In this document: piece after piece, positions 21,185-38,649 of the stretch | Numbering within the stretch: the first letter of the stretch is position 1 | Layout: each line of letters opens with the position of its first letter | NCBI GenBank assembly: GCA_026414385.1 | Contig: JAOAJC010000001.1 | Location: 2,384-66,383, forward strand | Reading direction: 5' to 3' | Origin: Candidatus Pacearchaeota archaeon | GTDB lineage: Archaea; Nanobdellota; Nanobdellia; Pacearchaeales; GW2011-AR1 | Length of the DNA: 64,000 nucleotides | Made by a program: the position numbers and the translations under genes | Notes under the pieces: generated by a model | The model's input: only the letters and a program-made list of their open reading frames with translations | Database searches by the model: none | Told to the model about the DNA's origin: nothing

Positions 21185-23011
21185 ATGCGTAAAAGAGGAT
21201 ATGTTATCAGCATAATAATTGTTTTTGCAATATTAATGGCAAACTTTTCAATTGCTGCAACTAATGAGAGTGAGGTAGTTAGTGTTGATAAGGCTTATAA
21301 ATGCCTAAATGAGCAAATTAAAAAAGTTGGTTCAAATATCGGATTCCAAGACGCGATTTTTGCACAGCTTGCAATTGGTTCAGTAAAAGAAACAAGAGAA
21401 AAAATTGAGAGCGAAAAAAGTTCTACTGAAAATTGTTGGCCAAAAGCAGGATGTAAGATAAAAGAAACAGCACAGGTAATGTTGGCTTATGATAGGGTAG
21501 GAAAGAGCACTTCTGAAATAAGAAAATGGCTAATGTCAAAAAATGCGAGCGCAAGTGAGTTAATATGGTTTTTAGAAATTGATATAACAAACAAAGAAGT
21601 TTCAACATGTAGTTTGAAATACGATGGAGTTCAATATAGCATAAAAGTAAATGAGGAACAAAAAATATCTGGGAATGCTGGAAATTGTTTTGTAATTGCG
21701 AATAATGGTTATATGTTAAGAGTTAGCAATAATTGTATTGGAAAAGAGTTTGAAATATCTTGCGACAAAGATTTTGTAACAGCTATGATTTATCAATCAA
21801 GTACTGGAAAAACATTATTTATTCCGCCAAAAGCGACAGGCGCATCTGGTGGCGGGACAACAAAAGAAAAAGCTATTTCGCAATGTTTTAAGACAACAGG
21901 AGCAGGGTGCGATTATGAAGGGACATTATGGGCAGTCCTTGCTCTTGAAAAATTGGGCGAGGAGACAGATGCATTTTTACCATACCTTTATGCATTTGCT
22001 GATTCTAATAAAAGATATTTTCCATCTGCATTTTTGTACATGATTACAAGTGGTGAGGACCAATATGATTCTATAATTTCTTTGCAAAAACAAGGAAAAT
22101 ATTGGGAAATTGCGGGAAGTCCTTATAATAAATATTATGATAGCGCACTGGCGTTAATGGCATTAAGCAAAACGACATCGCAAGAGGCAGAAAACGCAAA
22201 AGCAAATTTATTAACAATACAAACTCCTGATGGGTGTTGGAATAATAACAATATAAGAGATAGCGGATTTATATTATATGCAGGGTTTACGAAGAGTGTT
22301 GGGAGAGAGGGTGGAGGAGAGGTTCCAAAATGCACTGCACCATTTTCATGTACAGGTTTATTTGATTGTGAAAAAGCTGGTGGGACAAGACAATATAATT
22401 ATGATTGTTCATCAGAGGGGGCTACAAAGATATGCTGTTCAATAAGTGTTGTTGAAGAAACTTGTAGTAAAAAGGGAGGGGTGTTATGTGGTGCAAATGA
22501 ACAATGCACTGGTAGAACAGAACCGTCAAAAGATGGAAGTTGTTGTATGAGTGGTTTTTGTGAAGAAATCCCGGTTGTAGAGGACTTGTGTAGTAAAGCG
22601 GGAGGGACGTGTAAATTTGTGTGTGAGGAAGGGGAAGAAAAAAGTAGCGAAACATGCGCAAACACAGAAGAAGTTTGTTGTGTTAAAAAAGGAACAAGCA
22701 TTTGGTTTTGGATTGTATTACTAATAATATTAATTGCACTAACAATAGTCGGGATTGTTTATAGAAATCAGCTAAGATTATTTTGGTTTAAAATTTGGCC
22801 AAAAATAAAAGAGAAATTCATGGGAAAGAAAGTTGAGAGTAAAGCTATGCCTACAACGCAACCAACAACAAAAGCCCCTATTATGACGCCACAAAGAATG
22901 ATGCCAAGGCCAGCTTATCCAATATCGCAAAGAAGTCCGGGAATAGCAAAATCTTCAAAGGAAAAAGAAATAGAAGAAACATTAAGAAAACTAAAAGAGA
23001 TGGGAAAATAA
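21185..23011 (+). CDS. Secreted membrane-anchored surface protein with a toroid-like domain and three Cys-rich modules
   Basis: N-terminal signal/TM. The N-terminal alpha-repeat domain has a QW-like motif (LLTIQTPDGCWNNN). Three tandem Cys-rich modules (C..GG..C......CC) precede a single TM (IWFWIVLLIILIALTIVGIVY) and a basic/Pro-rich cytoplasmic tail. Confidence 0.6.
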   Translation: MRKRGYVISIIIVFAILMANFSIAATNESEVVSVDKAYKCLNEQIKKVGSNIGFQDAIFAQLAIGSVKETREKIESEKSSTENCWPKAGCKIKETAQVMLAYDRVGKSTSEIRKWLMSKNASASELIWFLEIDITNKEVSTCSLKYDGVQYSIKVNEEQKISGNAGNCFVIANNGYMLRVSNNCIGKEFEISCDKDFVTAMIYQSSTGKTLFIPPKATGASGGGTTKEKAISQCFKTTGAGCDYEGTLWAVLALEKLGEETDAFLPYLYAFADSNKRYFPSAFLYMITSGEDQYDSIISLQKQGKYWEIAGSPYNKYYDSALALMALSKTTSQEAENAKANLLTIQTPDGCWNNNNIRDSGFILYAGFTKSVGREGGGEVPKCTAPFSCTGLFDCEKAGGTRQYNYDCSSEGATKICCSISVVEETCSKKGGVLCGANEQCTGRTEPSKDGSCCMSGFCEEIPVVEDLCSKAGGTCKFVCEEGEEKSSETCANTEEVCCVKKGTSIWFWIVLLIILIALTIVGIVYRNQLRLFWFKIWPKIKEKFMGKKVESKAMPTTQPTTKAPIMTPQRMMPRPAYPISQRSPGIAKSSKEKEIEETLRKLKEMGK

Positions 23012-23063
23012 ATTGAGAGAACATAAAAGATAATAATAAAAAGGTTAAAAATTAATTAATTTT

Positions 23064-23996
23064 ATGAAAAAGATTGTGCTTTTAGTATTTTTTGTTTTTC
23101 TATCTAGCAGTGTGTTCGCCATAAGCGTTGATATAAAAAATAATTATTTACCAAGGCAAACAGTTATAGCGAAGATATCTGGTGAGGTTTTAGATATTTT
23201 AACAAAAGATAATATTCAATTCAGGAGAGGACATGTTGCGATTCCATTAGAACATGATTTAAAAAAAATAGGGGAAGAGTATTATATTTGGTTTATAACT
23301 CCATTTTTAGAGAACAACTATACGATTATAATAAAAAATATTGCTACAACTGTTGGCGGTTTTGTGAAAAGAATAGATTATGAAAAAAATTTCTCTGTGA
23401 TTGGAAATGCGAGCTATTCAATAAAGCCAGGTTTTGTTTATGCGACAAAAGATTTTGAAATAGCAGTGTTATTATATGAAGATGAAAGAAAGCAAATAAA
23501 AGTTAATTTTTTAGATGAACAGGAGATTGTTTTAAAGCCAGGAAATAATTTATTAAAATTTTCAATAGGAAGCATAAATGAGAGTGGATTTTATAACTTG
23601 ACAATAGGAGAGTATAATGTTCCAGCATACATAATTCCAAACAAGACATTTTATAAAAAGATAAATGAAACAAATGTTACGGCAAAAAACATCATTATTG
23701 AATATGAAATTAAAAATAAGACAAAAATAAACGAGACAAAAAAATTTGAAGTGTATTGTTATGAATATCCTGGGAAAATATGTGGAAATGAAGAAATTTG
23801 TGATGGTGAGACAAGAGAAACAATTGACGGATTTTGTTGTATTGGAACATGTAAGGGAAAAGAAAAGCAAAGTTCTGCATTATGGGGGTATTTATTAATT
23901 ATTGTTGTGGTTGCAATTTTAGGATATATTGGATGGAAATATTATAAAACAAAAGAAGAAAGAAAAAATATATTGCAAAAAAATGTGGCAAAATAA
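23064..23996 (+). CDS. Secreted surface protein with a Cys-rich juxtamembrane module and C-terminal TM anchor
   Basis: Signal peptide MKKIVLLVFFVFLSSSVFA. Module CYEYPGKICGNEEICDGETRETIDGFCCIGTCKG aligns with the modules of the upstream gene, then a TM and a KKTKEERKN tail. Confidence 0.55.
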   Translation: MKKIVLLVFFVFLSSSVFAISVDIKNNYLPRQTVIAKISGEVLDILTKDNIQFRRGHVAIPLEHDLKKIGEEYYIWFITPFLENNYTIIIKNIATTVGGFVKRIDYEKNFSVIGNASYSIKPGFVYATKDFEIAVLLYEDERKQIKVNFLDEQEIVLKPGNNLLKFSIGSINESGFYNLTIGEYNVPAYIIPNKTFYKKINETNVTAKNIIIEYEIKNKTKINETKKFEVYCYEYPGKICGNEEICDGETRETIDGFCCIGTCKGKEKQSSALWGYLLIIVVVAILGYIGWKYYKTKEERKNILQKNVAK

Positions 23997-24000
23997 AGAA

Positions 24001-24519
24001 TTAATCTTTTTTTGTTTTTGATTTTTTTTCAGGTTGTTGATTTTTGGCTTCGTTTTTTTGAGTTTCTTTGTTAATTTCTTCTTCAAGAGAAGGTTTTTTA
24101 AACAAATGAGGAGCATATTTTTTAAGCTCATTTAGAGCGATGTTTCTCTCGACAATTATTTTTTTTGTTATTGCGTCATAATCATGAAGTCTTGCGATAA
24201 GTTTATTTCCCAACTCGTTTAATTCTGCATTAGAAAGTTCGATTTTTTCTGGGGATATTAGTTCGACATTTGCAGGCATGTATGCAAACAATATTCCAAA
24301 AAAAGAAGACAAGGAGTCAAGCTCGAGAGAAACTTCTGCAAAAGAAGTAAACAAATCTTTCTTGTTTTCAATCTCTTTTGCTTCGTGTATTTTTTGACTT
24401 ATGATTTTAACTCCTTTTTCTTTGCTTAATCTTTCTATTAGTTGTTCAAGCGCGGTTTTTATGTAATCTTTAGGTCTTCCTAATATTTCAAGAACAATAT
24501 CAACTTGAAGGTTTTTCAT
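24001..24519 (-). CDS. Hypothetical protein with an acidic/lysine-rich tail
   Basis: 172 aa ORF in a clean gap. No recognisable motif. Confidence 0.4.
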   Translation of the reverse strand: MKNLQVDIVLEILGRPKDYIKTALEQLIERLSKEKGVKIISQKIHEAKEIENKKDLFTSFAEVSLELDSLSSFFGILFAYMPANVELISPEKIELSNAELNELGNKLIARLHDYDAITKKIIVERNIALNELKKYAPHLFKKPSLEEEINKETQKNEAKNQQPEKKSKTKKD

Positions 24520-24544
24520 AAATATATGCTATTAAAGTTGGCTT

Positions 24545-25225
24545 TTAAATCCTTCTCAAAATGAGATAAATAAGAATTAAAACAAAAATAATCAAAAATG
24601 CGTAAAAAAAATAAAACCACAATTTTAGTTTGTGGGTTGTTTGAGTATTTGTTTTTTTATTGAGATGGATTTTTTCGTTGCTTTTCGGTTGTTCTTCGTC
24701 TATTTTTTTTGGCATCTCTTCTTTTAGTGGAACGAAATCAGAAATAGAAGTTGTTAATTTTGGTGATTCGGATTTGGAAAAAGAATCTAATGATTGAGTT
24801 GGGGAGGAATTTGTTGTTTTTGATTCTTGTTTTTTTTCATTTGGTAAAATTGTTATCGGATTGCAAACTTCTGAAAAAGAGGAAGAGTTTGTTTTTCTTA
24901 ATCTCGCACAAATATTTGTTGCTCCGACATAATATGATTTAATCTTAAACTCTTTTGTTTTTGGAAAAACTTCTTTTAGATAATAGAATGGGTTGTTCCA
25001 TTTACCATCATAATAGATTTCGGAAAATTCTTTTGAATCATCATTTATAAATATTTTAACATCATAATTATTTGTTATAGAGGAAGATGTTGAAATAGAA
25101 ACAGAAAAGCTTTCATTAACGATTGATGATGATGGAGATATAAATTGAAATTCTAATGAAGATGATAGATTAATGGAAATTATCAAAATAATTAAATAAA
25201 GAACATTAATAACCATAGCTTTCAT
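24545..25225 (-). CDS. Ser/Thr-rich secreted protein with N-terminal signal and C-terminal TM anchor
   Basis: Start refined to MKAMVINVLYLIILIISINL (signal). Ser-rich ectodomain and a C-terminal TM LWFYFFYAFLIIFVLILIYLIL. Immediately downstream of the nuclease gene on the same strand. Confidence 0.45.
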   Translation of the reverse strand: MKAMVINVLYLIILIISINLSSSLEFQFISPSSSIVNESFSVSISTSSSITNNYDVKIFINDDSKEFSEIYYDGKWNNPFYYLKEVFPKTKEFKIKSYYVGATNICARLRKTNSSSFSEVCNPITILPNEKKQESKTTNSSPTQSLDSFSKSESPKLTTSISDFVPLKEEMPKKIDEEQPKSNEKIHLNKKTNTQTTHKLKLWFYFFYAFLIIFVLILIYLILRRI

Positions 25226-25952
25226 AGTGAGCAATTCCTCCGTTGTTATCAAATAGATATAAGCTATCCCTATCATTATTCCATATGTCAGTTTTTGAAT
25301 TCCAAAAAATATCTGTTGAATTATCTTTACCTATATTAGAATGGAGAGTAATTTTTGAAAAACTAATGTTTTTGAATGAATAGATCTTTCTACTCTCGTC
25401 CTTTATTGTAAAGCCAGTCATTGAAATGTTGCAATTGTTTATTATTATTATTTTTTCTTCTTTCGGGTTTATGTCTGTGCTAAAACAATTATAATAAATA
25501 GAAGGTTTCCATATTCCCAAATGATTTTTAATTGCGTTTTTTTCTGCATTTGAAAATAATTTTAGCTCTGATTCTTGAACAAGAAATTTTGATGCAAGGC
25601 CAAGTTCAACAATCCTTAAATTTAAGTATTCGGGAACATAAATTCTTGCAAGATATCTGTTATATTTATCTATGTCAATTATTTCTATATTGACTGACTT
25701 ATTTTCATAAGATTTAAGAAAACCTATTGCTAAATTTGATATTTGTAGATTTTTTTCTGGGGAGTTGATATTAATGAGACGGATTGTTCTATTATCTTCT
25801 AAAATTAGAGTATCGCCATCAATAACTCTTGAAATTACCACACTTTCTATTTTTTTATTTTTTTCGGAAATTAGAAGTGAAGAAAGGTGAAAAAGTGCAA
25901 AAACAAATAAAGTTATAAAAAATGCTAATAAAAAAGCGTATTTTTTATTCAT
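25206..25952 (-). CDS. Membrane-anchored extracellular thermonuclease (staphylococcal nuclease fold) fused to a lamin-tail domain (LTD)
   Basis: N-terminal TM anchor. SNase motifs VIDGDTLILEDNRTIRLININSPE, DKYNRYLARIY and KNHLGIWKP. C-terminal region ...IINNCNISMTGFTIKD...IWNNDRDSLYLFDNNGGIAHYESYGY fits the LTD pattern (W-N-N-x-G-D...L.D..G..VD...Y). Confidence 0.7.
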   Translation of the reverse strand: MNKKYAFLLAFFITLFVFALFHLSSLLISEKNKKIESVVISRVIDGDTLILEDNRTIRLININSPEKNLQISNLAIGFLKSYENKSVNIEIIDIDKYNRYLARIYVPEYLNLRIVELGLASKFLVQESELKLFSNAEKNAIKNHLGIWKPSIYYNCFSTDINPKEEKIIIINNCNISMTGFTIKDESRKIYSFKNISFSKITLHSNIGKDNSTDIFWNSKTDIWNNDRDSLYLFDNNGGIAHYESYGY

Positions 25953-25958
25953 TGTAAA

Positions 25959-26426
25959 TCAAATTATTTCTATCTTGCATTTTAAGGATGAGATAAATTT
26001 TTTAAGATTATTATTATCTAAAACGATTGTTTCTGTGTTTATGTTTGGATGAAATCCAATCAAATCTGACTCAATAACTTCTTTGTCAATGAAAAGCGTT
26101 ACGGAAGAAGAATAAATCATACCAAACAAAGAAACAGAACCAGGTGTTAAATTTATTTGTTGTTTTAATTCTTCTGGAGAAGCGAATTGTAGTTTTTTGC
26201 TGGCTATTCTTTTTTTTAAGGATTTTATATCTAATCTTTTTTTCCCAGGCATGCAAACTAAATAAAATTTACCTTTATCGTCTTTTAAAAAAAGGCTTTT
26301 TGTTCTCAATCCCGGAATGTTTTTTATTATCTTTGATGACTCTTCTACTGAAAAAACTGGTGGATGTGAGTATAATTCATATTTTATATCATATTTGGTT
26401 AGGTAATTTTTTAGATTCTCGTCCAT
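25959..26426 (-). CDS. YbaK/ProX-type aminoacyl-tRNA deacylase (trans-editing domain)
   Basis: 155 aa. KYELYSHPPVFSVEES...GSVSLFG matches the YbaK/ProX editing-domain family. Confidence 0.6.
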   Translation of the reverse strand: MDENLKNYLTKYDIKYELYSHPPVFSVEESSKIIKNIPGLRTKSLFLKDDKGKFYLVCMPGKKRLDIKSLKKRIASKKLQFASPEELKQQINLTPGSVSLFGMIYSSSVTLFIDKEVIESDLIGFHPNINTETIVLDNNNLKKFISSLKCKIEII

Positions 26427-26516
26427 TAGATAACTGAAAAAATAGGGTTAATATAATTTTAGATTTTAATTTGTGGATAAAGCAAATTTAATAAACTCAA
26501 GAAAACAGATAGAGGT

Positions 26517-27449
26517 ATGGTAAAAGAATATGATTTTATTATCATTGGAGCAGGGGTTGCGGGTTTGTCTGCTGCGATGTATGCTGGTAGATTAGGACTC
26601 AAAACATTATGTCTTGGTGCAAGTTCTGTTGAAGAGAAAGCAATTGGCGGCATAATAACAACAACAGATGATATTGAAAATTTTCCAGGATACATAAAAA
26701 TTTCAGGAGTGGAATTAGCTGAGAAAATAGAAAAACACGCCAGAGAATACAATGTTGAAATAAAAGAAGAAAGAGTTGAAAAAATTGTAAAAAAAGAAAA
26801 AAAATTTATTATAAAAACTAAAAAAAATGATTATGTTGCGAAAACAATATTAATCGCGACAGGAACTGAGAGAAGAAAATTAGAAGCAAAAAATGCTGAT
26901 AAATTTGAGAGAAAAGGTGTTGTATATTGTGCATTGTGTGACGCAGGATTATTTAAAGATAAAATCGTGGCAATTGTTGGTGGTTCAAATGCTGCTGCCA
27001 AAGATGCGTTGCTCTTGGCAAATAAAGCAAAAAAAGTTTATATTATTTACAGAAAAGAAAAATTGAGGGCAGAGGAAGATTATAGGAAAAAAGTAGAGGC
27101 AAATCAAAAGATAGAGATAATAAACAATGCAACGATTTTAGAGATTAGTGGAAAAGAAAAAGTTGAAGAGCTTGTTTTAGATAGGGAATATAAAGGAAGC
27201 AATAAATTAAAAGTTGATGGGGTTTTTGTTGCAATTGGGGGGAATGCAGCTTCTGAAATTGCGATTGAGTTGGGATTAGAATTAAATGAGAAAAATGAGA
27301 TAATAACAAACAAAAATTGTGAGACAAACATTGGTGGAGTTTATGCAGCAGGAGATGTAACTGATAGGGAATGGAAACAAGCGATAACTGCTGTTGCAGA
27401 GGGATGTATCGCGGCTTATTCTGCATTTAGATATTTAAGTAAAAGATAG
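26517..27449 (+). CDS. trxB: Thioredoxin-disulfide reductase
   Basis: FAD motif DFIIIGAGVAGLSAAMYAGR, redox-active CALCDAG, and NADPH motif GGSNAAAKDALLLA. Confidence 0.85.
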   Translation: MVKEYDFIIIGAGVAGLSAAMYAGRLGLKTLCLGASSVEEKAIGGIITTTDDIENFPGYIKISGVELAEKIEKHAREYNVEIKEERVEKIVKKEKKFIIKTKKNDYVAKTILIATGTERRKLEAKNADKFERKGVVYCALCDAGLFKDKIVAIVGGSNAAAKDALLLANKAKKVYIIYRKEKLRAEEDYRKKVEANQKIEIINNATILEISGKEKVEELVLDREYKGSNKLKVDGVFVAIGGNAASEIAIELGLELNEKNEIITNKNCETNIGGVYAAGDVTDREWKQAITAVAEGCIAAYSAFRYLSKR

Positions 27450-27525
27450 AACATTAATAGAGTATGATTTAATTGAGATTTTCTAACTTAATAAGGTTTT
27501 TAAAGTTCATATAAGTAATAAAATA

Positions 27526-27981
27526 ATGAAAAGAATTGCTAAAAGAGGGTTGTCGCCAATTATTGCGACAACATTGTTAATCTCGCTTGTGGTTATATTA
27601 TCAACAGTAATATTCATATGGGCGAGATCTTATTTTGGAGAGCAAATAACAAAGTTTGGTGGGCCTATTGAAGATTCGTGTAAAAATGTTGATTTCAGCG
27701 TAAGTTTTTCTGGGGGGATTTTAAGCATTGCAAATAATGGAAATGTTCCGATTTATGGAGTTAAGATATATGAAGAAGGAACTTTTGGAACAAATGATTT
27801 GGGAGATATAACAACCAAGGTTATTTTTCCTGGAAAAACAGGAGAGATGAGAGCAAATATGATTAATAATAACAATGTTAATAAAATTGTCGTTGTTCCA
27901 ATTTTGTTAGGAGTTATTGAAGAAAAAGAAGAGACAAAAGCATTTGCTTGTGATATTAATTATGGCAAAAACATAGGATAG
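27526..27981 (+). CDS. Archaeal type IV pilin (PF07790-like N-terminus, class III signal peptide)
   Basis: MKRIAKRGLSPIIATTLLISLVVILSTVIFIW matches the [KR]G-x-SP[IV][IV]AT-x-L[LI] archaeal pilin N-terminus. Confidence 0.75.
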   Translation: MKRIAKRGLSPIIATTLLISLVVILSTVIFIWARSYFGEQITKFGGPIEDSCKNVDFSVSFSGGILSIANNGNVPIYGVKIYEEGTFGTNDLGDITTKVIFPGKTGEMRANMINNNNVNKIVVVPILLGVIEEKEETKAFACDINYGKNIG

Positions 27982-27985
27982 AACA

Positions 27986-28525
27986 ATGGACAAAAAAAGA
28001 GGCATGTCGCCTATTGTTGCCACGGTTTTGATTGTTATGTTAACTATTGCAGGTGTTGCAGCAATTGCGAGCTTTGTTATTCCATTTATTAAAAAAAATT
28101 TGGAAAGTGGAAGTGAGTGTAAAGATTATGAAGATTATTTTGTTTTTGACGAGAGTTATAGATATAATTGCTATACTGGTAGCGGAAACAACACGGTTTA
28201 TGGATTTTCTGTAAAAGCGAAAGCTGATACAAAATCTTATCAAAATTTGAAAGGTTTTGTTATTGTGTTAAGAGCAAATGACGGAACATCAAAGAGCTAT
28301 GAAATAGTAAATGGTAGTCAGGCAGGGGAGATAAAAACCTGTGGAAAAACAAAAGTTGAATTGCCATATTCTGGTGGAATAAAAACATATGGATTTCGGA
28401 AAGAAAACATAGTTTCTGCAATAATCCAAACAAAACTTAAATCAGGAAAAATCTGTAAAGAAGCAGATAAAATAGATTTTTATAGGTGCGAATATTCAAT
28501 TGGAGAGACGCTGAAAACATGCTAG
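27986..28525 (+). CDS. Archaeal type IV pilin (PF07790-like N-terminus)
   Basis: MDKKRGMSPIVATVLIVMLTIAGVAAIASFVIPFI is the same class III signal motif. Confidence 0.75.
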   Translation: MDKKRGMSPIVATVLIVMLTIAGVAAIASFVIPFIKKNLESGSECKDYEDYFVFDESYRYNCYTGSGNNTVYGFSVKAKADTKSYQNLKGFVIVLRANDGTSKSYEIVNGSQAGEIKTCGKTKVELPYSGGIKTYGFRKENIVSAIIQTKLKSGKICKEADKIDFYRCEYSIGETLKTC

Positions 28526-29046
28526 TAAAAAAAGGACAGGTTTGGCTTGAAACGGTTTTATACACTTTAATAGGGCTTGTATTAATTGGAATGGTTCTTG
28601 CGTTTGTTATGCCAAAAATTAATGAGGTAAGAGATAGGGCGCTTGTTGAGCAAGCAATATCAACATTTAGTTTGTTGGACGAGAAAATAAATGAAGTTTT
28701 ACAAAAAGGAGCGGGAAATACGAGGAAAATTGATTTTATAATGAAAAAAGGCGAACTCTATTTTAATATGAGTAATGATGAAATTGTTTTTGTGATAAAA
28801 GAATTATCAAAACCATATTCAGAACCTGGAATAGAAATAGAACGAGGAAATATGAAAATATTGAGTTTGCAAAAAGCAAAAACAAATGAAGTGTATTTAA
28901 AATTGAAATATGACTCAAATCTAACATATTCTGGCAGCGATAACTTAAAAAAATTGACTTCTGCATCAACTCCTTATAAGATTTTTATTGAAAATAAAGG
29001 TGTTGTTGGGGAAAGAGAGTGGATAAACATAGAAGAGGTTTCTTAA
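28519..29046 (+). CDS. Pilin-like protein with class III signal and Glu at +5
   Basis: Start refined to the overlapping ATG (ATGCTAG) giving MLVKKGQVWLETVLYTLIGLVLIGMVLAFV. KKG then QVWLE places a Glu five residues after the predicted cleavage site. Confidence 0.55.
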   Translation: MLVKKGQVWLETVLYTLIGLVLIGMVLAFVMPKINEVRDRALVEQAISTFSLLDEKINEVLQKGAGNTRKIDFIMKKGELYFNMSNDEIVFVIKELSKPYSEPGIEIERGNMKILSLQKAKTNEVYLKLKYDSNLTYSGSDNLKKLTSASTPYKIFIENKGVVGEREWINIEEVS

Positions 29047-29101
29047 TAAAAAAAGATAGGTTTAAATAAATCTTTTCTCTGATTAGTAGTAATAAAAAAA
29101 G

Positions 29102-30625: not shown

Positions 30626-30687
30626 AATGTGAAAATTTCTTAAGCCATATTGATTAAATTTAATAAGATTGAAAAATAAATATAATT

Positions 30688-30849
30688 ATGAAAAAAGAGG
30701 ACATTAATTTAATTGCCAGAGTATTGACGGACATGAAAGATTCTTTAACTGAAATTGAAAATGCGTTGAAAAATAAAGACATTGGAAAATTAAATGAAGC
30801 AAAATCAAAGATTTTGAGGTTGCAAATAGAGATAGATAAAAGAATATGA
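30688..30849 (+). CDS. Small coiled-coil ORF (53 aa) between the ATPase and the membrane platform gene
   Basis: MKKEDINLIARVLTDMKDSLTEIENALKNKDIGKLNEAKSKILRLQIEIDKRI, with a stop codon overlapping the next ATG (ATGA). Below the ORF-track size cutoff. Confidence 0.3.
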   Translation: MKKEDINLIARVLTDMKDSLTEIENALKNKDIGKLNEAKSKILRLQIEIDKRI

Positions 30850-32138
30850 TAACCCAAATAGAACAACTAAAAAAGAACATAGATGGTGAAATAAAGATAT
30901 TAGGAGAGATTTCTAATTTATTTGTTAGGTTTGAAAATAGCACTGGAGAAGAAAGAAGAATAATTCTTAGTACAATTGATTCACTATCTAAAAATATGAA
31001 GATGATAAACCGAGCGATTCCAAAAATTCTTGAGAGTATTGTCATTGAGGAAAGAAAAGAAAAGAAAGAAGACAAACTTGAGAGAATAGAAGAAGGAATT
31101 GCGGAGGGGGTTGTTTTGAAACTAGAGGACAAGGAAAAATTCTTAACAGAATTAAACATAAATGAAGAGTTTATTAAAAAATTAAAGAAAAAGAAAAGTG
31201 AGGGTGAAGAAAAATATGAAGAATTCAAAAAAGCAAGAGGTTATTTGAAACTTGCAAATAGGTTTTTTTTAGAAAGTTCTATTAGTATGGTAAAGAAAGG
31301 ATATTTCAGTGATTTATACAATGATTTAAAAAAATCAAATTTAAACATTCTTCTTGAAGGATATGTTGCGATGATGCTTTTAACAAGCGTTATTGCGTTT
31401 TGTTTGGGGGTTTTTTTGTTTGTTTTTTTTATGTTATTTGATATTAGTTTTTCGATGCCTTTAATAAGTGCCTATAAAGGCGGGTTTTTTCCGAGATTTT
31501 CAAAAATAATATGGCTACCTTTAATTATGCCATTGATAACTTTTATAGCACTCTATATTTACCCATCAACAGAGGCAAAATCAATTGAAAAAAATATAAA
31601 CGAAGAATTACCATTTGCTGTGGTGCATATGAGTTCTATATCAGGTTCTGGGATAGCGCCTGTGGAAATTTTCAAAATTATTGGGAATAGCAAAGATTAC
31701 CCATATCTAAAAAGAGAGTTAAGAAAAGTGTTAAACCAAATCAACATATATGGATATGATTTAGTTAGCGCATTAAATAATGTCTCAAAAAGTACACCAA
31801 GTGCAAAATTAAGTGCCTTGATGGCTGGATTATCAACTACAATAAATACTGGTGGAAATTTGAGCGATTTTTTTCAGAAAAGAGCTGATTCATTGCTATT
31901 AGAGTACAAGTTAGATAAGGAAAAATTCATAAAAGTTGCAGAGACATTTATGGACATTTACATAAGCGTCGTAATTGCTGCACCAATGATAATTATGTTG
32001 TTGTTAATAATGATATCAATATCGGGATTACAAACAGGATTCTCGCCATATCAATTAACATTCATCACAATAGCAGGAGTAGCTTTTGTTAATATTATAT
32101 TTTTAGCATTTTTACAAACAAAGAAAGGAATTGCATAA
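30846..32138 (+). CDS. Pilus assembly membrane protein, FlaJ/TadC-like, N-terminal half (T2SS-F domain)
   Basis: Cytoplasmic coiled-coil N-terminus, then TM helices and a T2SSF-like domain (ELPFAVVHMSSISGSGIAPVEIFKIIG...LSALMAGLSTTINTGGNLSDFF). Confidence 0.7.
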   Translation: MITQIEQLKKNIDGEIKILGEISNLFVRFENSTGEERRIILSTIDSLSKNMKMINRAIPKILESIVIEERKEKKEDKLERIEEGIAEGVVLKLEDKEKFLTELNINEEFIKKLKKKKSEGEEKYEEFKKARGYLKLANRFFLESSISMVKKGYFSDLYNDLKKSNLNILLEGYVAMMLLTSVIAFCLGVFLFVFFMLFDISFSMPLISAYKGGFFPRFSKIIWLPLIMPLITFIALYIYPSTEAKSIEKNINEELPFAVVHMSSISGSGIAPVEIFKIIGNSKDYPYLKRELRKVLNQINIYGYDLVSALNNVSKSTPSAKLSALMAGLSTTINTGGNLSDFFQKRADSLLLEYKLDKEKFIKVAETFMDIYISVVIAAPMIIMLLLIMISISGLQTGFSPYQLTFITIAGVAFVNIIFLAFLQTKKGIA

Positions 32139-32986
32139 TGAAAATAAATAGAACAAAATTGCTTGGAATTATAGCAGGAATAATTGTGATAGTTGTTGAT
32201 TTAATATTTTTCTTTGGTGAAAAAGCATTTATGTTTATCATCGGCATAGCAATTGTTGTAGCATTAACACCTTTTATAATTGAAATAGTAAGGGAGGGAA
32301 AAAGGGCAGAGGATATCGAAGAGAAATTTCTTGAATTTTCAAGAAATCTTGCAGAAAGCGTAATGACTGGAACTCCGATAAGTAAAAGTATTGTGAATAT
32401 ATCAAAAAAGAATTATGGTGCTTTGACTCCCCACGTGCAGAAATTATCAAATCAAATTCAATTAGGAATACCATTAAGTAAGGCATTGCAAATATTTGCA
32501 AATGATATTGATAATGTTGTTATAACTAGAGCAATAGCACTAATAAGTGAGGCTGAAAAAGCTGGTGGAGAAATTGATTATATTCTCGATTCTGTTGCTA
32601 AATCAATTGCAGAAACAGAAAAACTAAAAAAAGAAAGAAAATCTGCAATATTTAATCTTGTAATGCAAGGATATATTATATTCTTTATATTTATAGGAAT
32701 AATGCTCGTAATGGAGTTTAAAATATTGCCACTTGCGACAGGAATTGGTGGGGGGGGCATTTCTGGAGTAGAAATTGGTGGAATGATACCTGTTGGAGGA
32801 CAAACAATGAATCCTGAAGAGATATCAAATTTATTCTTATACTTGCTTTTAACACAAGGATTTTTTGCAGGATTGACTATTGGAAAATTGAGCGAGGGTT
32901 CTATAAAAGCTGGGATTAAACACTCGTTTATACTTGTTATTGCAGCATTTTTAATATCAACGGGAGTAAGAGCTTTGTTTGTTTAA
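32138..32986 (+). CDS. Pilus assembly membrane protein, FlaJ/TadC-like, C-terminal half (second T2SS-F domain)
   Basis: TAATG overlap with the upstream half. TM, then T2SSF-like IEEKFLEFSRNLAESVMTGTPISKSI...LISEAEKAGGEIDYILDSVA, then TMs. Confidence 0.65.
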   Translation: MKINRTKLLGIIAGIIVIVVDLIFFFGEKAFMFIIGIAIVVALTPFIIEIVREGKRAEDIEEKFLEFSRNLAESVMTGTPISKSIVNISKKNYGALTPHVQKLSNQIQLGIPLSKALQIFANDIDNVVITRAIALISEAEKAGGEIDYILDSVAKSIAETEKLKKERKSAIFNLVMQGYIIFFIFIGIMLVMEFKILPLATGIGGGGISGVEIGGMIPVGGQTMNPEEISNLFLYLLLTQGFFAGLTIGKLSEGSIKAGIKHSFILVIAAFLISTGVRALFV

Positions 32987-33046
32987 AAACATAATTGAAC
33001 TTTGTTATAAAGCAAATTTAATAAACTAAAAAAAATTAAGAAAGAT

Positions 33047-33745
33047 ATGAAAAAGAGAGGGGCGAGCAATATAGAGTTTATACTTGCATTTGTATTGTTT
33101 GTCGGATTTGTAGCAACGATTTTTTATTTTTTTAATCCTATTAGAAATGTTAATTATATGGAATCATCTTTAAACTATGTTATTGGAGCGATAGAGAAAA
33201 ATGTAACTAGTGAGATTGATGAAGTTGGGATATTAATTAAAGGTTCAAGTTCGGGGGGCAATATTGCAAAGGTTAAGATAAAAGACATTTCAAATGATAA
33301 AAAAGTTGATGCAAGAGATTATTATGGATTTCGATTTGATGCAAAAAGAAATGGTGAAGAAGTTTATATTGATTTAAAAAATAGAGGAACAAATAACAAT
33401 TTTATAATATTTAGGTTTAATGAGGAATTTAATGAGGAAACAATTTCTAGTGGCCAAGAAAGAGAATATACAATATCAACAAAAGATTCAAGAAAAATTG
33501 TTTCTGAAAAAAAAATAAAGCAATTAAGCGAGAGATACGCAAATAATTATTTAAAATTGAAAGAAGAACTAAAAATTCCTGCGAACATTGATTTTTCATT
33601 TTCGTTAGAATTGCAAGACAGAAAAATAGAAGTAACAAAAGATATTCCTGCAAGAGCAGAAGTATTTGCAAAGGGAAAATTAATTGAAGTATTAAAAGAA
33701 AATGAGGTGACTGAAACCGGATATTTAACAATAAGAATATGGTAA
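33047..33745 (+). CDS. Pilin-like/minor pilin protein (class III signal, Glu+5)
   Basis: MKKRGASNIEFILAFVLFVGFVATIFYFF. If cleaved after RG, Glu is at +5. Confidence 0.5.
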   Translation: MKKRGASNIEFILAFVLFVGFVATIFYFFNPIRNVNYMESSLNYVIGAIEKNVTSEIDEVGILIKGSSSGGNIAKVKIKDISNDKKVDARDYYGFRFDAKRNGEEVYIDLKNRGTNNNFIIFRFNEEFNEETISSGQEREYTISTKDSRKIVSEKKIKQLSERYANNYLKLKEELKIPANIDFSFSLELQDRKIEVTKDIPARAEVFAKGKLIEVLKENEVTETGYLTIRIW

Positions 33746-34167
33746 ATAAAAAAGGAATAGTTAGAATAATTGAAGCCAGTGTTGCAATATTAATTATATT
33801 GTCTGTAGTATTAGTGGTTTCTGAAAGAAAAAAATTGCAAATTGAGAGCGATTTAAGTGAGAGAATAACTCCATTGTTAGAAGAAATAGCAAAAAATGGG
33901 AGTATGAGAGAAGCGATAATAAGAGATAATGAAACGAATAATGATGCTGAAAATCTTGTTATGGATTTTTTGAAACAAAGAATAAAAGAGACATTTATAG
34001 GTTATAATGTAACAATATGTAACTATACTCTTGTTTGTGGATTAAGAACATATCCAACAGAAGCAAAAGGCAACATTTATTCTGGAGAGAGAGTGATTAG
34101 CACAACATTAGAAAATAGACAGTTCAATCCAAAAAAAATAAAGATTTTCTTATGGATTAAAAGATAA
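33739..34167 (+). CDS. Pilin-like protein (class III signal)
   Basis: MVNKKGIVRIIEASVAILIILSVVLVV. Confidence 0.45.
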   Translation: MVNKKGIVRIIEASVAILIILSVVLVVSERKKLQIESDLSERITPLLEEIAKNGSMREAIIRDNETNNDAENLVMDFLKQRIKETFIGYNVTICNYTLVCGLRTYPTEAKGNIYSGERVISTTLENRQFNPKKIKIFLWIKR

Positions 34168-34299
34168 AACTGGTTTGCAATAGATTAAATTAAAAAATTT
34201 TGCATAAAATAGAATAACTTAAATCTTATGTTTGGGCGCGCATTTGTATAGATTAAGGAGTACAGGTAATTTTATAAACTCCATTTCTTTAAAAAAGAT

Positions 34300-35907
34300 A
34301 TGAAAAGAGAGGTTTTTTTTATCGGATTTGTAATATTTATAATAACGTTTGCAAGCGCTATTTGCAATGATGAGAATCAGGTTATTTTAAGATTATACAG
34401 AGAGAATAACTCTCATGCGGCAATATGGTCAAATACAACTTATAGCGAAAAAGTGTGTTTTAATGATATTTTTGGACTAAATTATTCAGGAACAAATCCA
34501 CACGATTGTAATAGTGATAATAGTAATGTTGTTTTAAAGCTAAATCAAGAGTTTAATGCGCATGCTGCACTGCCAACTCTTCCAGATAGTGTTGTTGGAT
34601 TCCCAATAAAAGTTTGTTATAAGGGAGTAAAAAAATGTGAATTGTTTGATAATGATAATTGCAGAGCAAATCAGAAAGCAATTCTTTATTTTAATAGCGT
34701 GATTAACTCTCATCTTTCAAAAAATTATGGAGGGGATTTTACAAAAACATTGTGTTGTTATAGATATGATGCGATAATTCATCCGGAATGGTGTTTTGCA
34801 AATAACATTAGCAGTTGTGATAGATATAATAGTCAAACTAATTGCACTCAAGATTTATGTAATGCCTCATTAGTAGATCCAAATTGTCCTCTCGGAGCAA
34901 CTTGTAATTGTGCTTGGGAAAATAATCAATGCAAATTAAAAGTAATAACCACTCCTCCAGCCCCGCCATTTTGTTCTACTATAAATTCATGTGGAGATTA
35001 TAAAGAACAAAGTAAATGTTCTGAAGATATGTGTAACGTTTCTGGGACAGGATATAAGTGTGAGTGGAATATCGCAGATGGAAAGTGTGAGAAAGTTCAA
35101 ATCCCTGGATGGTGTTCTGTAATTAGTAGTTGTAGTAATTATACAACGCAAGCAAATTGTAGCGCGAATCCTTGTTTGGAGGGAAAAGCATGTTATTGGA
35201 ATAATAGTGTTTGTAAAGATTATAAAGCAGATGATAAATGTAGAATAAATAATATAACGAAATGTGCAAATTATGTGGACAAAGATCCGTGTAATGATGA
35301 TGCTTGTAATGTATCTATAATTGGTTGTTCTCCTAATCAGTTATGTTGGTGTGCTTGGGAAAATAATAAGTGTGAGAAAAGAGAAAAAGATAGAGAAGAA
35401 AAAAGAGATTTTTGCGATTATATAGATTCTTGTAGTGATTATGATACTTCAAATAAGTGCGAAAATGATAATTGTGGAATTGCAGATTATGATGAGAATT
35501 GTCCTATTGGTAGAGATTGTTCGTGTAAGTGGATAAGTAATGTTGGTTGTGGAGTATCATTTGAGAGTGGGGGAGGGAGTGGTGGCAGGATGCCTCCTGG
35601 TTCAGGTGGGTGGGGCAATCCAGGTTGCAAATATAATTGTACAATTAATACAAAACAAGGAGAGTGTAAAGAAGGATTTATGGATGTGATAGTAAATGCA
35701 GAAACTAGGATAATACAAGGATGTACAGGAGCAACAGGAAGTCCACTAGATTGTCAAACTAAAACAATAAAGGGAGTTCCGTGTGCATTAGCAGAAACAG
35801 AATTGCCTTTTTTTGAATTTTGGCAAATCCTCATTTCTATTGTGGGGATTGTATTTGTCTATTTGTTTTTATTAAAAAATTGGGAAAAAATAAAAAAGCA
35901 TATATAA
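34300..35907 (+). CDS. Secreted Cys-rich repeat protein (five ~40-aa C-x-x-Y/x-x-x-x-C-x-x-D-x-C-N-x-S...C-x-W-x-N-x-x-C modules) with C-terminal TM anchor
   Basis: Signal peptide. Repeats CDRYNSQTNCTQDLCNAS...CNCAWENNQCKLK, CGDYKEQSKCSEDMCNVS...CEWNIADGKCEKV, CSNYTTQANCSANPC...CYWNNSVCKDY, CANYVDKDPCNDDACNVS...CWCAWENNKCEKR, CSDYDTSNKCENDNCG...CSCKWISNVGCG. Many N-x-S/T sequons. Gly-rich linker and TM at the end. Confidence 0.6.
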   Translation: MKREVFFIGFVIFIITFASAICNDENQVILRLYRENNSHAAIWSNTTYSEKVCFNDIFGLNYSGTNPHDCNSDNSNVVLKLNQEFNAHAALPTLPDSVVGFPIKVCYKGVKKCELFDNDNCRANQKAILYFNSVINSHLSKNYGGDFTKTLCCYRYDAIIHPEWCFANNISSCDRYNSQTNCTQDLCNASLVDPNCPLGATCNCAWENNQCKLKVITTPPAPPFCSTINSCGDYKEQSKCSEDMCNVSGTGYKCEWNIADGKCEKVQIPGWCSVISSCSNYTTQANCSANPCLEGKACYWNNSVCKDYKADDKCRINNITKCANYVDKDPCNDDACNVSIIGCSPNQLCWCAWENNKCEKREKDREEKRDFCDYIDSCSDYDTSNKCENDNCGIADYDENCPIGRDCSCKWISNVGCGVSFESGGGSGGRMPPGSGGWGNPGCKYNCTINTKQGECKEGFMDVIVNAETRIIQGCTGATGSPLDCQTKTIKGVPCALAETELPFFEFWQILISIVGIVFVYLFLLKNWEKIKKHI

Positions 35908-35949
35908 AGGAATCAGTAATTTTTTAAACATAATTTTATTAATAAAATA

Positions 35950-38649
35950 ATGAATAAAAAAAGAGTGAGCGTTGTTTTTTGTTTTATATTCTTATTAGTT
36001 ATTATTAGTTTTGTTTCTGCATCTTTTAGTTTTAAAAATGAAAATTTGCAAAGAACATATGTTGGTGGAGAGATGATTAAGGGATTTATAAACATAAGTT
36101 TCTCAAATGAGAATGCACATAGTTTATTAACTAGTAATTTTAATGGAACAATAACATTAATTGAATTATTGAAAAAAAATAACTTTATCGAAAATAATGA
36201 TTACATATGTTCTAGAAAAAAATGCGAAATTGATTATAAAGCAGACGAAGAAATAAACAGTTTAAATTTAAATGATGATGATAGTAAAATAATTGGCTTT
36301 AAATTAACTGGAAATAATGTAGAAATAAGTTCGTTAAAATTATCTTTGGCAACAAATGCAGATGCTTCGTGCGAGAGAGAAATTTTGATAGATGTTCTTG
36401 ATAGAAACGAGAGTTTTATACAGAGCACAAAAAAAACAAAGGATATTTGTGAAGAAGAGTATTTTGGTTGTTTTGACGAAAACGAAGATACAAGTTATGT
36501 AATTATATCAGAATCAGGATATTGTGAAAAGATTGAATTGCCGCCAGCACCTGCATATATGATAGGAGCAAAAGTAAAAAATGGAACAGCGACAGCAAAA
36601 TTAACAATGAAATTATATGATGGTTCATGGAATGAGTTGGGTGAATGTGAATTACCAAAAAACTCACAAAATATTGAAAAACTGACATGCCAAGTTAATT
36701 ATTCAAATAAAGAAAAGAAAGAATTTATGATTTGCATTTCTTCTTCATCAGAAGACGCAGAATATCAGATAAGGAGTGAAGAATCTAGAGAAACATGCGG
36801 AACGGATAATATGGGTAGCTCTTATAATATTGATTTTGAGATATTTGCAAAAAAAGTTAAATTTGCTCCGATAGGGATATTATCAATAAATGAGACGACT
36901 TTTTCAGAACAAAATGATGGAAATAACTTAAATGATTATATAGATAGTTATATAGAAGAAAAATATGAAAGAAATTGTTCAAATGGGTGCATAATTCCGT
37001 TTAGGATTTATGGGAATAGTCAGACAATTACAAAAGAAAGTGCAACATTAAAATATAGAGAAGGTAGTGGTAGAGTGTTGCGTACGACAGGTGCTATTTA
37101 TTCTATTGAAAAAGAAGATGCAAAAATAACTACAAAAAGAGCATTAAACATAAATATTGAAAAGGCAGGTTTTTTCATACCTCTCTTATCAACAGCAAAA
37201 CAATTATTAATTTATTTGGACAATAAGATGATATTGCCAAAAGCTATTCCGATAAATGTTACAAAAGGATTTGATTTTGATATTTCACCAAAAGAAGTTA
37301 GCATTGGTATAGTAACTTATTTTAATATAATAACAACTGAGAATATAACTTCGTCCAAGTGGAATTTTGGAGATGGAACAATTGAAACATTTGATGGAAA
37401 AGGAGCCGTACATAAATATGTTGGATTACCAATTGGAACAAATGAGTATAGTGTTGAAGTAATCGTAACAAGAAAAGATGGAGTAATATCAAAAAAAATA
37501 TTTAAAATAGGGATTGAGCCATTGTCAGAAAGCGCAAAAACCTTGCTTAATATATCAAATTCAAAAATAACAAAATTAAACTCAAAAATAAACTCTTATC
37601 CTGAGTGGATTGGAGATTTAATAAAAACAAAATTGAATTTTGATAATATGAATTCTGTTATTACGAAAGGAAAAATTGCTATTTTGAATGCTTCAACTAA
37701 TGATGATTATATGGCAATAATAAATCAAATGTTAGGATTAGAAATTCCCGATGAAATAATTTCAAAAGAGATTGGAAAGGATATTAATCCTGTTGTTGGA
37801 TTTGAAAAAATAGAAACGTCTGCCATTGAACAGATATCAAATAAAAAGGTAAGCTCAGATAAAAAAGCAGAACTAAAAGAAGCGATTATTAAATGGATGG
37901 CGAGAAATGCAAACATGAAATTAGAGTATGAAAAGATATTTCAGATAGATGAAAATGGGGAAAAAATTTTACTTAGTAAATTGGTGATAGATGTTAATCC
38001 AAAAGAAAAAGCTTATTTGATAATAAATTATCCACTCAACAGCATAAAATTCAATGGAAATTATTCTGAAAGTGCAATTGGTTCTTTTAGTTATATCCCT
38101 ATAAAAGAACCAAAAATAATAGAATTTGCAATTATGGATAATGTTAATGTTGGGGATTTAGGTATTTATCTATCGCCAACAATTGATAAAGTTTATGTAC
38201 AAGCAGAAGTTGTTAAGGAAGAATTTAATTGGAGTAGATTTATAACGTGGATGATTGTTTTGTTCGTAATTGCTTTTATAATATACATTGTAATGCAAGA
38301 ATGGTACAAAAGATATTACGAAAAATCATTATTTAAAAATAAAGATGACTTGTATAATTTAATTAATTTTATTTATAATGCAAAAAAAGCAGGAATGAAA
38401 GATGAAGAATTAAGAAATAAGTTGAGTGATGCAAAATGGAAAGGCGAACAAATAACATATGCTCTAAGAAAAGCAGAAGGAAAAAGAACTGGGATGTGGG
38501 AAATACCAATATTTAAATATTGGGAACAAATGGAAATAAAAGCAGAGATTGCAAAAAGAGTGGGTGAGCAAAAAACAAGCGCGCAACAACAGTCAAATTC
38601 AAAAATGCATAATATAAAAACTGGGACACAACAAAGTTTATTAAAATAA
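35950..38649 (+). CDS. Large secreted surface protein with a PKD domain and C-terminal TM anchor
   Basis: Signal peptide. PKD motif WNFGDGTIETFDGKGAVHKYVGLPIGTNEYSVEVIVTRKDG. TM FITWMIVLFVIAFIIYIVMQEWY. 899 aa. Confidence 0.6.
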   Translation: MNKKRVSVVFCFIFLLVIISFVSASFSFKNENLQRTYVGGEMIKGFINISFSNENAHSLLTSNFNGTITLIELLKKNNFIENNDYICSRKKCEIDYKADEEINSLNLNDDDSKIIGFKLTGNNVEISSLKLSLATNADASCEREILIDVLDRNESFIQSTKKTKDICEEEYFGCFDENEDTSYVIISESGYCEKIELPPAPAYMIGAKVKNGTATAKLTMKLYDGSWNELGECELPKNSQNIEKLTCQVNYSNKEKKEFMICISSSSEDAEYQIRSEESRETCGTDNMGSSYNIDFEIFAKKVKFAPIGILSINETTFSEQNDGNNLNDYIDSYIEEKYERNCSNGCIIPFRIYGNSQTITKESATLKYREGSGRVLRTTGAIYSIEKEDAKITTKRALNINIEKAGFFIPLLSTAKQLLIYLDNKMILPKAIPINVTKGFDFDISPKEVSIGIVTYFNIITTENITSSKWNFGDGTIETFDGKGAVHKYVGLPIGTNEYSVEVIVTRKDGVISKKIFKIGIEPLSESAKTLLNISNSKITKLNSKINSYPEWIGDLIKTKLNFDNMNSVITKGKIAILNASTNDDYMAIINQMLGLEIPDEIISKEIGKDINPVVGFEKIETSAIEQISNKKVSSDKKAELKEAIIKWMARNANMKLEYEKIFQIDENGEKILLSKLVIDVNPKEKAYLIINYPLNSIKFNGNYSESAIGSFSYIPIKEPKIIEFAIMDNVNVGDLGIYLSPTIDKVYVQAEVVKEEFNWSRFITWMIVLFVIAFIIYIVMQEWYKRYYEKSLFKNKDDLYNLINFIYNAKKAGMKDEELRNKLSDAKWKGEQITYALRKAEGKRTGMWEIPIFKYWEQMEIKAEIAKRVGEQKTSAQQQSNSKMHNIKTGTQQSLLK

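Follow-up and report, generated by a model that had tools for sequence, protein, structure and literature searches.

Positions 21185–38649 of a 64,000-nucleotide (nt) stretch of archaeal DNA (the whole of which is referred to here as the window) hold a pilus operon of a known kind, a pair of adhesin-like proteins, a second pair built around a predicted (alpha/alpha)6 toroid, and a staphylococcal-nuclease-type (SNase-type) enzyme. We consider it probable that this neighborhood is a conserved surface apparatus of the Pacearchaeota. The source organism is a DPANN archaeon of that group: the 535-amino acid (aa) and 608-aa proteins encoded here are 100% identical to NCBI proteins (N3D20_00270 and N3D20_00190, respectively) from a Candidatus Pacearchaeota metagenome-assembled genome (MAG), in agreement with the DPANN-type origin that a first-pass annotation, made from the DNA letters, had proposed. 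Our interpretation draws on the genes present, their topology signals, the fold predicted for the 608-aa ectodomain, synteny, and the sizes of the families. That the proteins are exposed on the surface, form a filament, adhere, or scavenge nucleotides, and that there is a host at all, is inferred. The first-pass annotation had already spoken of a host-interaction apparatus, and the joint presence of a complete pilus core, an SNase-type nuclease, and predicted surface proteins accords with that description, though the 608-aa protein is not fast-evolving and to that extent fits it poorly.

We propose that the neighborhood comprises four separate cell-surface units with housekeeping genes in between. 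The first (27526–34167) would be an Epd/Tad-like archaeal type IV pilus, in which a FlaI/CpaF-type ATPase and two single-domain TadB/TadC-like proteins assemble a filament from two canonical pilins, with three Glu+5/+6 pilin-like proteins probably acting as minor or initiating subunits. Directly downstream and on the same strand, the second unit (34300–38649) would pair a modular, disulfide-rich protein carrying repeated N-x-H motifs with an 899-aa PKD protein, both of them anchored adhesins or receptors that may act after pilus-mediated contact. An anchored toroid protein and its smaller, knot-sharing partner would make up the third unit (21185–23996), probably a non-catalytic binding or envelope module. 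The fourth would be an SNase-type nuclease, located outside the cell or bound to the membrane and encoded in the same orientation as a Ser-rich anchored protein; the nuclease may degrade external nucleic acids for salvage.

Surface topology was called from translations and a hydropathy scan, and exposure is predicted only. A signal-like segment and a single C-terminal transmembrane (TM) segment were found together in five proteins (608, 310, 243, 535, and 899 aa), for which the topology ascribed to the whole group in the first-pass annotation was borne out; the nuclease, with an N-terminal segment only, departed from it. By a rough count, such proteins make up 5 of the 20 genes in the region and ~1 of the 48 elsewhere (Fisher p ~0.007). 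The density of N-x-S/T sequons in the predicted surface proteins (1.53 per 100 aa, 1.58 times the expected value, versus 0.52 and 1.11 times in other genes) fits cell-surface exposure, and Cys counts in the predicted ectodomains are high and even.

Pilus operon

The operon carries, by sequence, the defining parts of a type IV pilus: an assembly ATPase, a polytopic T2SSF platform, and class III prepilins. All of its genes lie on the plus strand. It begins with two archaeal type IV pilins, pilin 1 at 27526–27981 (class III signal RG↓LSPIIAT, with the arrow at the cleavage-type site) and pilin 2 at 27986–28525 (RG↓MSPIVAT). Both pass TIGR02537 (24.8 bits, cut-off 20), as expected from their initial assignment, and both signal motifs are kept in orthologues. 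The next gene is pilin-like (28519–29046, likely start ATG 28519) and has the signal KKG↓QVWLETVLYTLIGL (Gln+1, Glu+5), a motif kept in orthologues with the consensus KG↓QVW(I/V)ETV(L/I)YTLIGL. Two more pilin-like genes close the operon, one at 33047–33745 (RG↓ASNIEF, Glu+5; orthologue motif RG↓xSH(I/L)E) and the other at 33739–34167 (KKG↓IVRIIE, Glu+6; orthologue motif K(K/R)G↓xxRxxE). None of these three matches any curated model; in each, orthologues conserve a [KR]G↓ cleavage-type motif ahead of a hydrophobic helix. This conservation of class III signals sustains the earlier call of three further pilin-like genes, two of them with Glu+5, the third having Glu+6.

The ATPase (29102–30625) belongs to the PilB/FlaI/CpaF superfamily and is encoded by a single T2SSE gene (PF00437, 2.9e-31), much as the FlaI/TadA-like label given to it at the outset implied. 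Its PDB sequence matches are A. fulgidus chain 2OAP (8e-115), which was deposited under the title "Type II secretion system protein", FlaI (4e-83), and CpaF (3e-50). The split FlaJ/TadC-like pair was also correctly recognized: two polytopic platform proteins are encoded at 30846–32138 (1.4e-17) and 32138–32986 (4.1e-17), each with one T2SSF (PF00482) domain, a TadB/TadC-like arrangement. The initial gene inventory was incomplete in one respect, having overlooked a conserved 53-aa open reading frame (ORF; 30688–30849) that follows the ATPase gene and runs 4 nt into the first platform (T2SSF) gene. The related loci L081 (where the sequence is clearly similar), L082, and L083 have an ORF of equal size and position, and it probably encodes a small cytoplasmic component of the pilus operon.

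Co-occurrence in other DPANN genomes was checked by using the ATPase as query, which retrieved 80 genome loci, all from MAGs labelled Pacearchaeota, Woesearchaeota, or Nanoarchaeota. The pilus core recurs in 62–80 of the 80 loci (ATPase in 80, the Gln+1 pilin-like gene in 68, and the T2SSF genes in 68 and 62), and the whole gene order in five Pacearchaeota contigs.

The pilus itself is not new, and such loci have already been published for Pacearchaeota. Conserved type IV pilus loci were described in 2024 for cluster-2 DPANN, Pacearchaeota included (PMC11291902), and a 2019 paper had drawn attention to pilus "islands" in DPANN that include signal-peptide proteins lacking annotation (PMC6393860). 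The loci of Hamm et al. (2024) and Makarova et al. (2019) resemble ours in the lineages named (Pacearchaeota and Woesearchaeota) and in having a CpaF/FlaI-type ATPase, a TadC-type platform, PilA/FlaF-like filament proteins, and uncharacterized secreted neighbors. They differ in emphasis: coiled-coil proteins resembling viral attachment proteins are stressed there, whereas the N-x-H family, the 899-aa partner, and the toroid protein go unmentioned. Euryarchaeal clade 1 and 2 pilus loci (e.g. Methanococcus Epd) have two tadC-like genes each, with S-layer-like proteins nearby, and thus share with the window two platform genes in place of one fused two-domain gene (PMC4858521). The window further resembles Epd and Tad pili in that its locus has one ATPase and none dedicated to retraction, and in its Gln+1/Glu+5 pilin-like proteins; it differs in that neither a peptidase of the EppA or PibD type nor a FleN/MinD ATPase was seen in the pilus locus. 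Separate TadB and TadC platform genes are a feature of the bacterial Tad pilus, from which the window differs in that its ATPase is much closer to 2OAP and FlaI than to CpaF.

Several other observations concern pilus genes in the window or in its relatives. Two further pilin-like genes lie beyond the region on the minus strand (49088–49558 and 49560–50087), each with one N-terminal hydrophobic helix; one of them starts MDKRGQFFLMAAIII (Gln+1), and neither has a Pfam match. An eight-TM SPP/presenilin-like aspartyl protease (42277–43170, minus strand; PF06550, 38.5 bits, cut-off 23.9) is the sole GxGD-type protease seen in the scanned ORFs. In relatives, a gene labelled FmrO-like in the precomputed annotation (~250 aa, minus strand) separates the second T2SSF gene from the next pilin-like gene (L001 13039–13803, L004 13911–14681, L083 20775–21542); it is absent from the window, where the corresponding interval is 32986–33047. 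Pili may be accompanied by Cys-rich surface proteins on a recurrent basis, as distant Woesearchaeota-type loci hint: there, a secreted protein that is very large and rich in Cys (1136–1803 aa, 31–84 Cys) is encoded ~2.5–3.5 kb upstream of the ATPase in L041 (1061–5827), L042 (2106–7517), L044 (3672–7343), L052 (2109–5519), L066 (3784–7371), and L068 (2741–6997). These large proteins have no significant match to any region gene (BLASTP, E <= 1e-4).

The N-x-H protein and its 899-aa partner

The gene behind the pilus operon (34300–35907, plus strand) encodes a 535-aa anchored protein with 50 Cys, a signal-like segment, and a C-terminal TM segment. Its signal peptide is followed by a triplicated N-x-H module (~22–160), five Cys repeats (165–417), a Gly-rich linker, a conserved C-terminal module, the sequence ELPFFE, the TM segment, and a basic tail. 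The five-repeat Cys-rich protein of the first-pass annotation was therefore correctly described. Searches of Pfam, NCBIfam, and the PDB with the 535-aa protein yielded nothing significant. The repeats are 34–47 aa long (C-x5-7-C-x2-Y-x5-C-x4-C...C-x-W-x4-6-C) and vary in number, with five in the window protein, four in P0002, and one similar segment (by eye) in L004 and L005. A check for recent expansion or phase variation revealed no DNA-level tandem or direct repeats in this part of the gene; at the nucleotide level, the Cys repeats are of old date. They bear some resemblance to PSI (plexin-semaphorin-integrin) repeats, which no profile confirmed: at E <= 10, Pfam returned just Paramecium_SA (0.017, below cut-off) and DUF7397 (0.2), and a PDB profile search was empty. 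Membership of the PSI family or of another named Cys-rich repeat family was set aside, as no curated profile matched significantly.

A word-indexed homologue search with the 535-aa protein gave two relatives only; an exhaustive profile search for the N-x-H family gave 1094 cluster representatives at E <= 1e-3 (135 at E <= 1e-30). The clusters are at 50% identity, and the family size is a lower bound (at least 1094). Named members are all Nanoarchaeota or Pacearchaeota. The part common to the family is the N-terminal module of ~140 aa, in which a repeat occurs three times, with the pattern C-x3-5-(Q/N)-x-(I/V)-L-x-L-x4-N-(A/S)-H-x6-12-Y-x3-(I/V)-C-(Y/C). The triplication was recovered by hhalign (probability 96–98%, E 1e-9 to 1e-12), and a 19-sequence alignment shows no variation at Asn18, His20, Asn67, His69, or His119 and at least 90% conservation at Asn117. 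Domains inserted in the family include PKD (19 of 40), Laminin_G_3, CARDB, F5/8 type C, and a subtilase.

At the C-terminus of family members, a conserved module that contains Cys leads into (L)PFFG, which is followed by a TM helix and a basic tail. Of 149 family representatives, 78 have this tripartite LPFFG tail and the rest look truncated; examples are found at 35800–35904 in the window and in L001 (15061–16089), L004 (15864–18167), L005 (17148–20288), and L006 (15807–18899). A short motif followed by a TM segment and a basic tail is likewise characteristic of PGF-CTERM/archaeosortase, PEP-CTERM/exosortase, and LPXTG/sortase signals. The NCBIfam CTERM models had no match among the region proteins, and we know of no archaeosortase for the Pacearchaeota lineage. 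Among ~1100 ORFs of the 80 loci, LPFFG is restricted to the N-x-H family and therefore may simply be a piece of the family's C-terminal domain, which weakens the case for a general sorting signal.

The 899-aa type-I membrane protein (35950–38649, plus strand) consists of a signal peptide, a ~740-aa ectodomain with a putative PKD domain at ~450–515, a TM segment (764–782), and a 117-aa cytoplasmic tail. Its size was given correctly from the start, and the PKD assignment was only partly upheld: in the window protein PKD_4 reaches 21 bits and falls below the cut-off of 27 (PF18911/PF00801), while PKD at the same position passes in the orthologues from L004 (38.1 versus 27) and L001 (24.2 versus 23.5). 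A PDB sequence/profile search with the 899-aa protein gave no significant match. The best-conserved segment is cytoplasmic and juxtamembrane (801–850, LYNLINFIYNAKKAGMKDEELRNKLSDAKWKGEQITYALRKAEGKRTGMW; window 38350–38500; 11 orthologues), and it has no Pfam domain match. That the most conserved part of the protein lies in the cytoplasm argues for a transmembrane link over a purely external coat protein.

The association of this pair with the pilus was surveyed from both sides. From the pilus side, ~6 loci with an ATPase of 68% identity or more were informative, and five of them (L001, L004, L005, L006, and L010) have the N-x-H gene behind the pilin-like genes, downstream of the operon. From the N-x-H side, a 7-sequence alignment query gave 24 metagenome loci. 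An 899-aa homologue stands directly behind the N-x-H gene in ~13 of the 24, pilus genes immediately precede the N-x-H gene in 9 of ~13 informative loci, and GTPase and OapB genes usually come after the pair.

A bolder version of the proposal, to which we give a distinctly smaller chance, holds that the N-x-H and 899-aa proteins form a Pacearchaeota-specific, pilus-linked two-protein receptor. The distal N-x-H module would then have a novel three-fold architecture that binds a ligand or a metal, LPFFG would be a new sorting or anchoring signal, and the conserved 899-aa cytoplasmic domain would connect contact with the cell interior.

The toroid pair and the nuclease

The 608-aa type-I membrane protein (21185–23011, plus strand) has a signal-like segment and a TM segment at 506–524. 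Its predicted layout runs from a signal peptide through an (alpha/alpha)6 toroid with a beta-sandwich insert (~120–240) to three Cys knots (381–421, 425–462, and 467–502), the TM segment, and a tail. In the predicted model the three small Cys-rich modules have predicted local distance difference test (pLDDT) values of 75–87 and are followed by a Pro-rich disordered tail and a terminal helix. The cytoplasmic tail (window 22760–23008) closes with a conserved amphipathic helix (consensus DKEMEETLKKLKEMSK), whose conservation suggests that the tail has a cytoplasmic binding partner.

A word-indexed search with the 608-aa protein produced 259 or more matches at E <= 0.001. Among the 120 matches listed, identities are 40–67%, in almost every case across 94% or more of the query, and no Pfam domain was found in any of them; a PDB sequence/profile search was without significant match. 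The predicted model nonetheless identifies the ectodomain as an (alpha/alpha)6 toroid, a known and common fold that alone gives no function. The first-pass remark that the Cys-rich modules resemble no nameable family stands for the small knots, the fivefold Cys repeat, and the N-x-H module, for which Pfam, NCBIfam, and PDB sequences offered no matching family. It fails for the main ectodomain of the 608-aa protein, an outcome that the first-pass annotation had itself named as counting against its reading and that does so in part. The fold match picks no single function among proteins that share it (squalene-hopene cyclase, C3/alpha-2-macroglobulin/CD109, GH76, and intrinsic factor/transcobalamin), from which the 608-aa protein differs in being predicted extracellular and anchored and in having a beta-sandwich insert and three Cys knots. 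Two candidate identities were rejected, namely a thioester protein (C3/A2M/CD109; CGEQ in 0 of 47 members) and a class II terpene cyclase/squalene-hopene cyclase (DxDD in 4 of 47; SQHop_cyclase_C only at E 0.063). One QW-like motif is conserved in the family.

The neighboring 310-aa type-I membrane protein (23064–23996, plus strand; signal-like segment, TM 272–290) has ten N-x-S/T sequons, 4.6 times the expected number, and no Pfam or NCBIfam match. Its Cys knot (232–264) is homologous to knot 2 of the 608-aa protein (425–462; hmmsearch 5.6e-11), also in the L001 and L006 orthologues. Three proteins had been thought to share a Cys-rich module; only these two do, as a profile of the 425–462 knot had no match in the 535-aa protein.

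The SNase-type enzyme (25206–25952, minus strand) contains an SNase domain (PF00565) well above the cut-off (8e-13; 49.2 bits versus 21). According to the hydropathy scan it has an N-terminal hydrophobic segment only (a signal peptide or signal anchor) and no C-terminal anchor. Equivalents of the DGDT motif, Arg35, Glu43, and Arg87 of S. aureus thermonuclease are retained. Asn replaces the Ca-ligand Asp40 and Ser replaces Thr41, so catalytic activity is likely, not certain. The enzyme is thus like staphylococcal nuclease in its SNase domain and unlike it in the Asn for Asp40 and in a possibly uncleaved N-terminal anchor. Many secreted bacterial nucleases carry a lamin tail domain (LTD) at the C-terminus. 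An LTD (PF00932) had been assigned here as well, and this half of the first-pass call did not hold up: the match lies below the cut-off (24.3 bits versus 34.3, 4.3e-5), and the domain is flagged "weak" in the precomputed annotation of relatives, so that the C-terminal part is at most weakly LTD-like. The co-oriented Ser-rich protein (243-aa ORF, 24545–25276, minus strand) has a signal-like segment and a C-terminal TM segment and is, at 13.5% Ser, moderately Ser-rich, which squares with its earlier description. Its likely start is a Met at 25225 or 25216, and the gene overlaps the end of the nuclease gene.

Chromosomal setting and competing explanations

The first-pass annotation had presented these genes as a contiguous island, and neither part of that picture survived. 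Three cytoplasmic housekeeping genes intervene: an MJ0538-like gene (24001–24519, minus strand; 172 aa, no TM segment, orthologues annotated PF27325 (MJ0538)) and, from Pfam scans, a YbaK/tRNA-editing (tRNA_edit) domain protein (25959–26426, minus strand) and a thioredoxin-reductase-like (TrxR) flavoprotein (26517–27449, plus strand). The surface genes are therefore not contiguous. GC content is 0.27–0.33 across the window and ~0.30 in the surface-gene region, which resembles the flanks and shows no deviation. Upstream are genes for ribosomal proteins L2, L4, and L3, then PCNA and a PriS-like primase; downstream are a GTPase, OapB, CCA-adding enzyme, TrmB, SPP-like protease, FttA, Rad50, and Mre11. 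Bordered as it is by the ribosomal operon, PCNA, and primase on one side and the GTPase, OapB, and CCA-adding enzyme on the other, the block belongs to the core chromosome.

Gene order is conserved as well. In L081, L082, and L083 it runs PCNA, primase, 608-aa, 310-aa-like, MJ0538-like, (Ser-rich), SNase/LTD, (YbaK), and TrxR, followed by three pilins, the ATPase, the 53-aa ORF, and two T2SSF genes, despite 608-aa orthologues that are just 42–47% identical. The order is also retained in the Pacearchaeota contigs L001 and L006 and partially in L003 and L019. We conclude from this sequence comparison that 21185–38649 is a conserved, vertically inherited Pacearchaeota chromosomal neighborhood and not an island. 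Horizontal acquisition of the 17 kb as an island of host-interaction genes is favored by the local clustering of secreted and anchored proteins and by nothing else. It is opposed by the flank-like GC and by an order shared across Pacearchaeota along with the ribosomal operon, PCNA, and primase, and no integrase-type domain occurs among the Pfam-scanned genes (tRNA genes, integrases, and flanking direct repeats were not searched for). On composition and synteny we reject it and give it next to no credence.

Two other alternatives account for the gene set in different ways. The main rival is that the anchored proteins may be general envelope constituents of a small archaeon without a wall, such as an S-layer-like or wall scaffold, which lie near the pilus through broad conservation of gene order and belong to no dedicated host-interaction apparatus. 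The high conservation of the 608-aa family favors this explanation, as do the housekeeping genes interspersed in the region and in the conserved order, and in 6–10 distant loci (e.g. L022, L026, L032, L035, and L037) GTPase/OapB and pilus genes occur in one locus with no detectable homologues of the two big surface genes. The 899-aa protein has a size and topology that we take to be typical of archaeal S-layer proteins, and S-layer-like proteins adjoin euryarchaeal pilus loci (PMC4858521). Speaking against it are the modular nature of the N-x-H family, whose swapped adhesin-type domains and variable repeat number are unlike a lattice-forming protein, the conservation of the 899-aa protein chiefly in its cytoplasmic part, and the position of the N-x-H/899-aa pair behind pilin genes in most informative loci. 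We judge the envelope explanation possible and somewhat unlikely. Type IV pili also drive DNA uptake in many bacteria, and the pilus and the LTD-bearing nuclease might constitute a competence-like system in which the pilus captures DNA and the nuclease processes it at the membrane, the other surface proteins being unrelated. This we regard as improbable. SNase cuts DNA to small products and does not deliver single strands, no ComEC-like channel or DprA was found among the scanned genes (~15.7–49 kb of the window), and the nuclease is on the opposite strand, with two housekeeping genes between it and the pilus operon. What speaks for uptake is that the operon and the nuclease gene are less than 2 kb apart, a proximity that is conserved, and that pilin-like and competence genes have been reported in small-genome lineages (PMC9938205).

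A conserved surface apparatus remains the interpretation we prefer, and several results count against it. The conserved order takes in housekeeping genes (ribosomal, PCNA, primase, YbaK, TrxR, and GTPase), so collinearity may be a general property of Pacearchaeota and not a sign of functional coupling. The linkage of N-x-H and pilus genes is missing from ~37 more distant loci (ATPase identity <=67%), and 4 of ~13 informative N-x-H loci are without upstream pilus genes. Conservation of the 608-aa protein goes far beyond what is typical of proteins in host interaction. AlphaFold2 gave an unusable model of the 535-aa protein from a three-sequence alignment (pLDDT 30), so an adhesin role of its modules is without structural support. 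The Asn in place of the nuclease Ca-ligand Asp40 recurs in L019, and no A24 prepilin peptidase (PibD/FlaK/EppA) was found among the region genes and the scanned multi-TM ORFs, which represent part of the window.

Two features of the surroundings stand apart from these questions. The cumulative GC skew has a minimum near 16–18 kb, just ahead of the divergence of PCNA (minus strand) and primase (plus strand) at ~19.4–19.6 kb, and a gene for OapB (origin-associated protein) lies at 39314–39706; together they could mark a replication origin, or the skew may merely reflect a switch in gene orientation. A further anchored surface protein (735 aa; 53408–55615, plus strand) has a signal-like segment, a TM segment at 694–712, and a weak Big_13 Ig-like match (6.5e-5, below cut-off).

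Pacearchaeota are among the metabolically most reduced archaea. They have been found enriched in the >2.5 um size fraction, which the authors read as host attachment, and the same preprint reported type IV pilus components to be missing from DPANN genomes (bioRxiv 10.1101/2020.05.14.094862). Our data contrast with the latter report, with a complete pilus core in most of the 80 loci, in agreement with PMC11291902. The pilus operon and the linked adhesin-like pair may thus be regarded as concrete candidates for the reported attachment. The most useful lead lies in the two unannotated families, N-x-H (at least 1094 clusters at 50% identity) and toroid (at least 259 matches at E <= 0.001), both of which are targets for structure prediction, proteomics, and heterologous binding assays.

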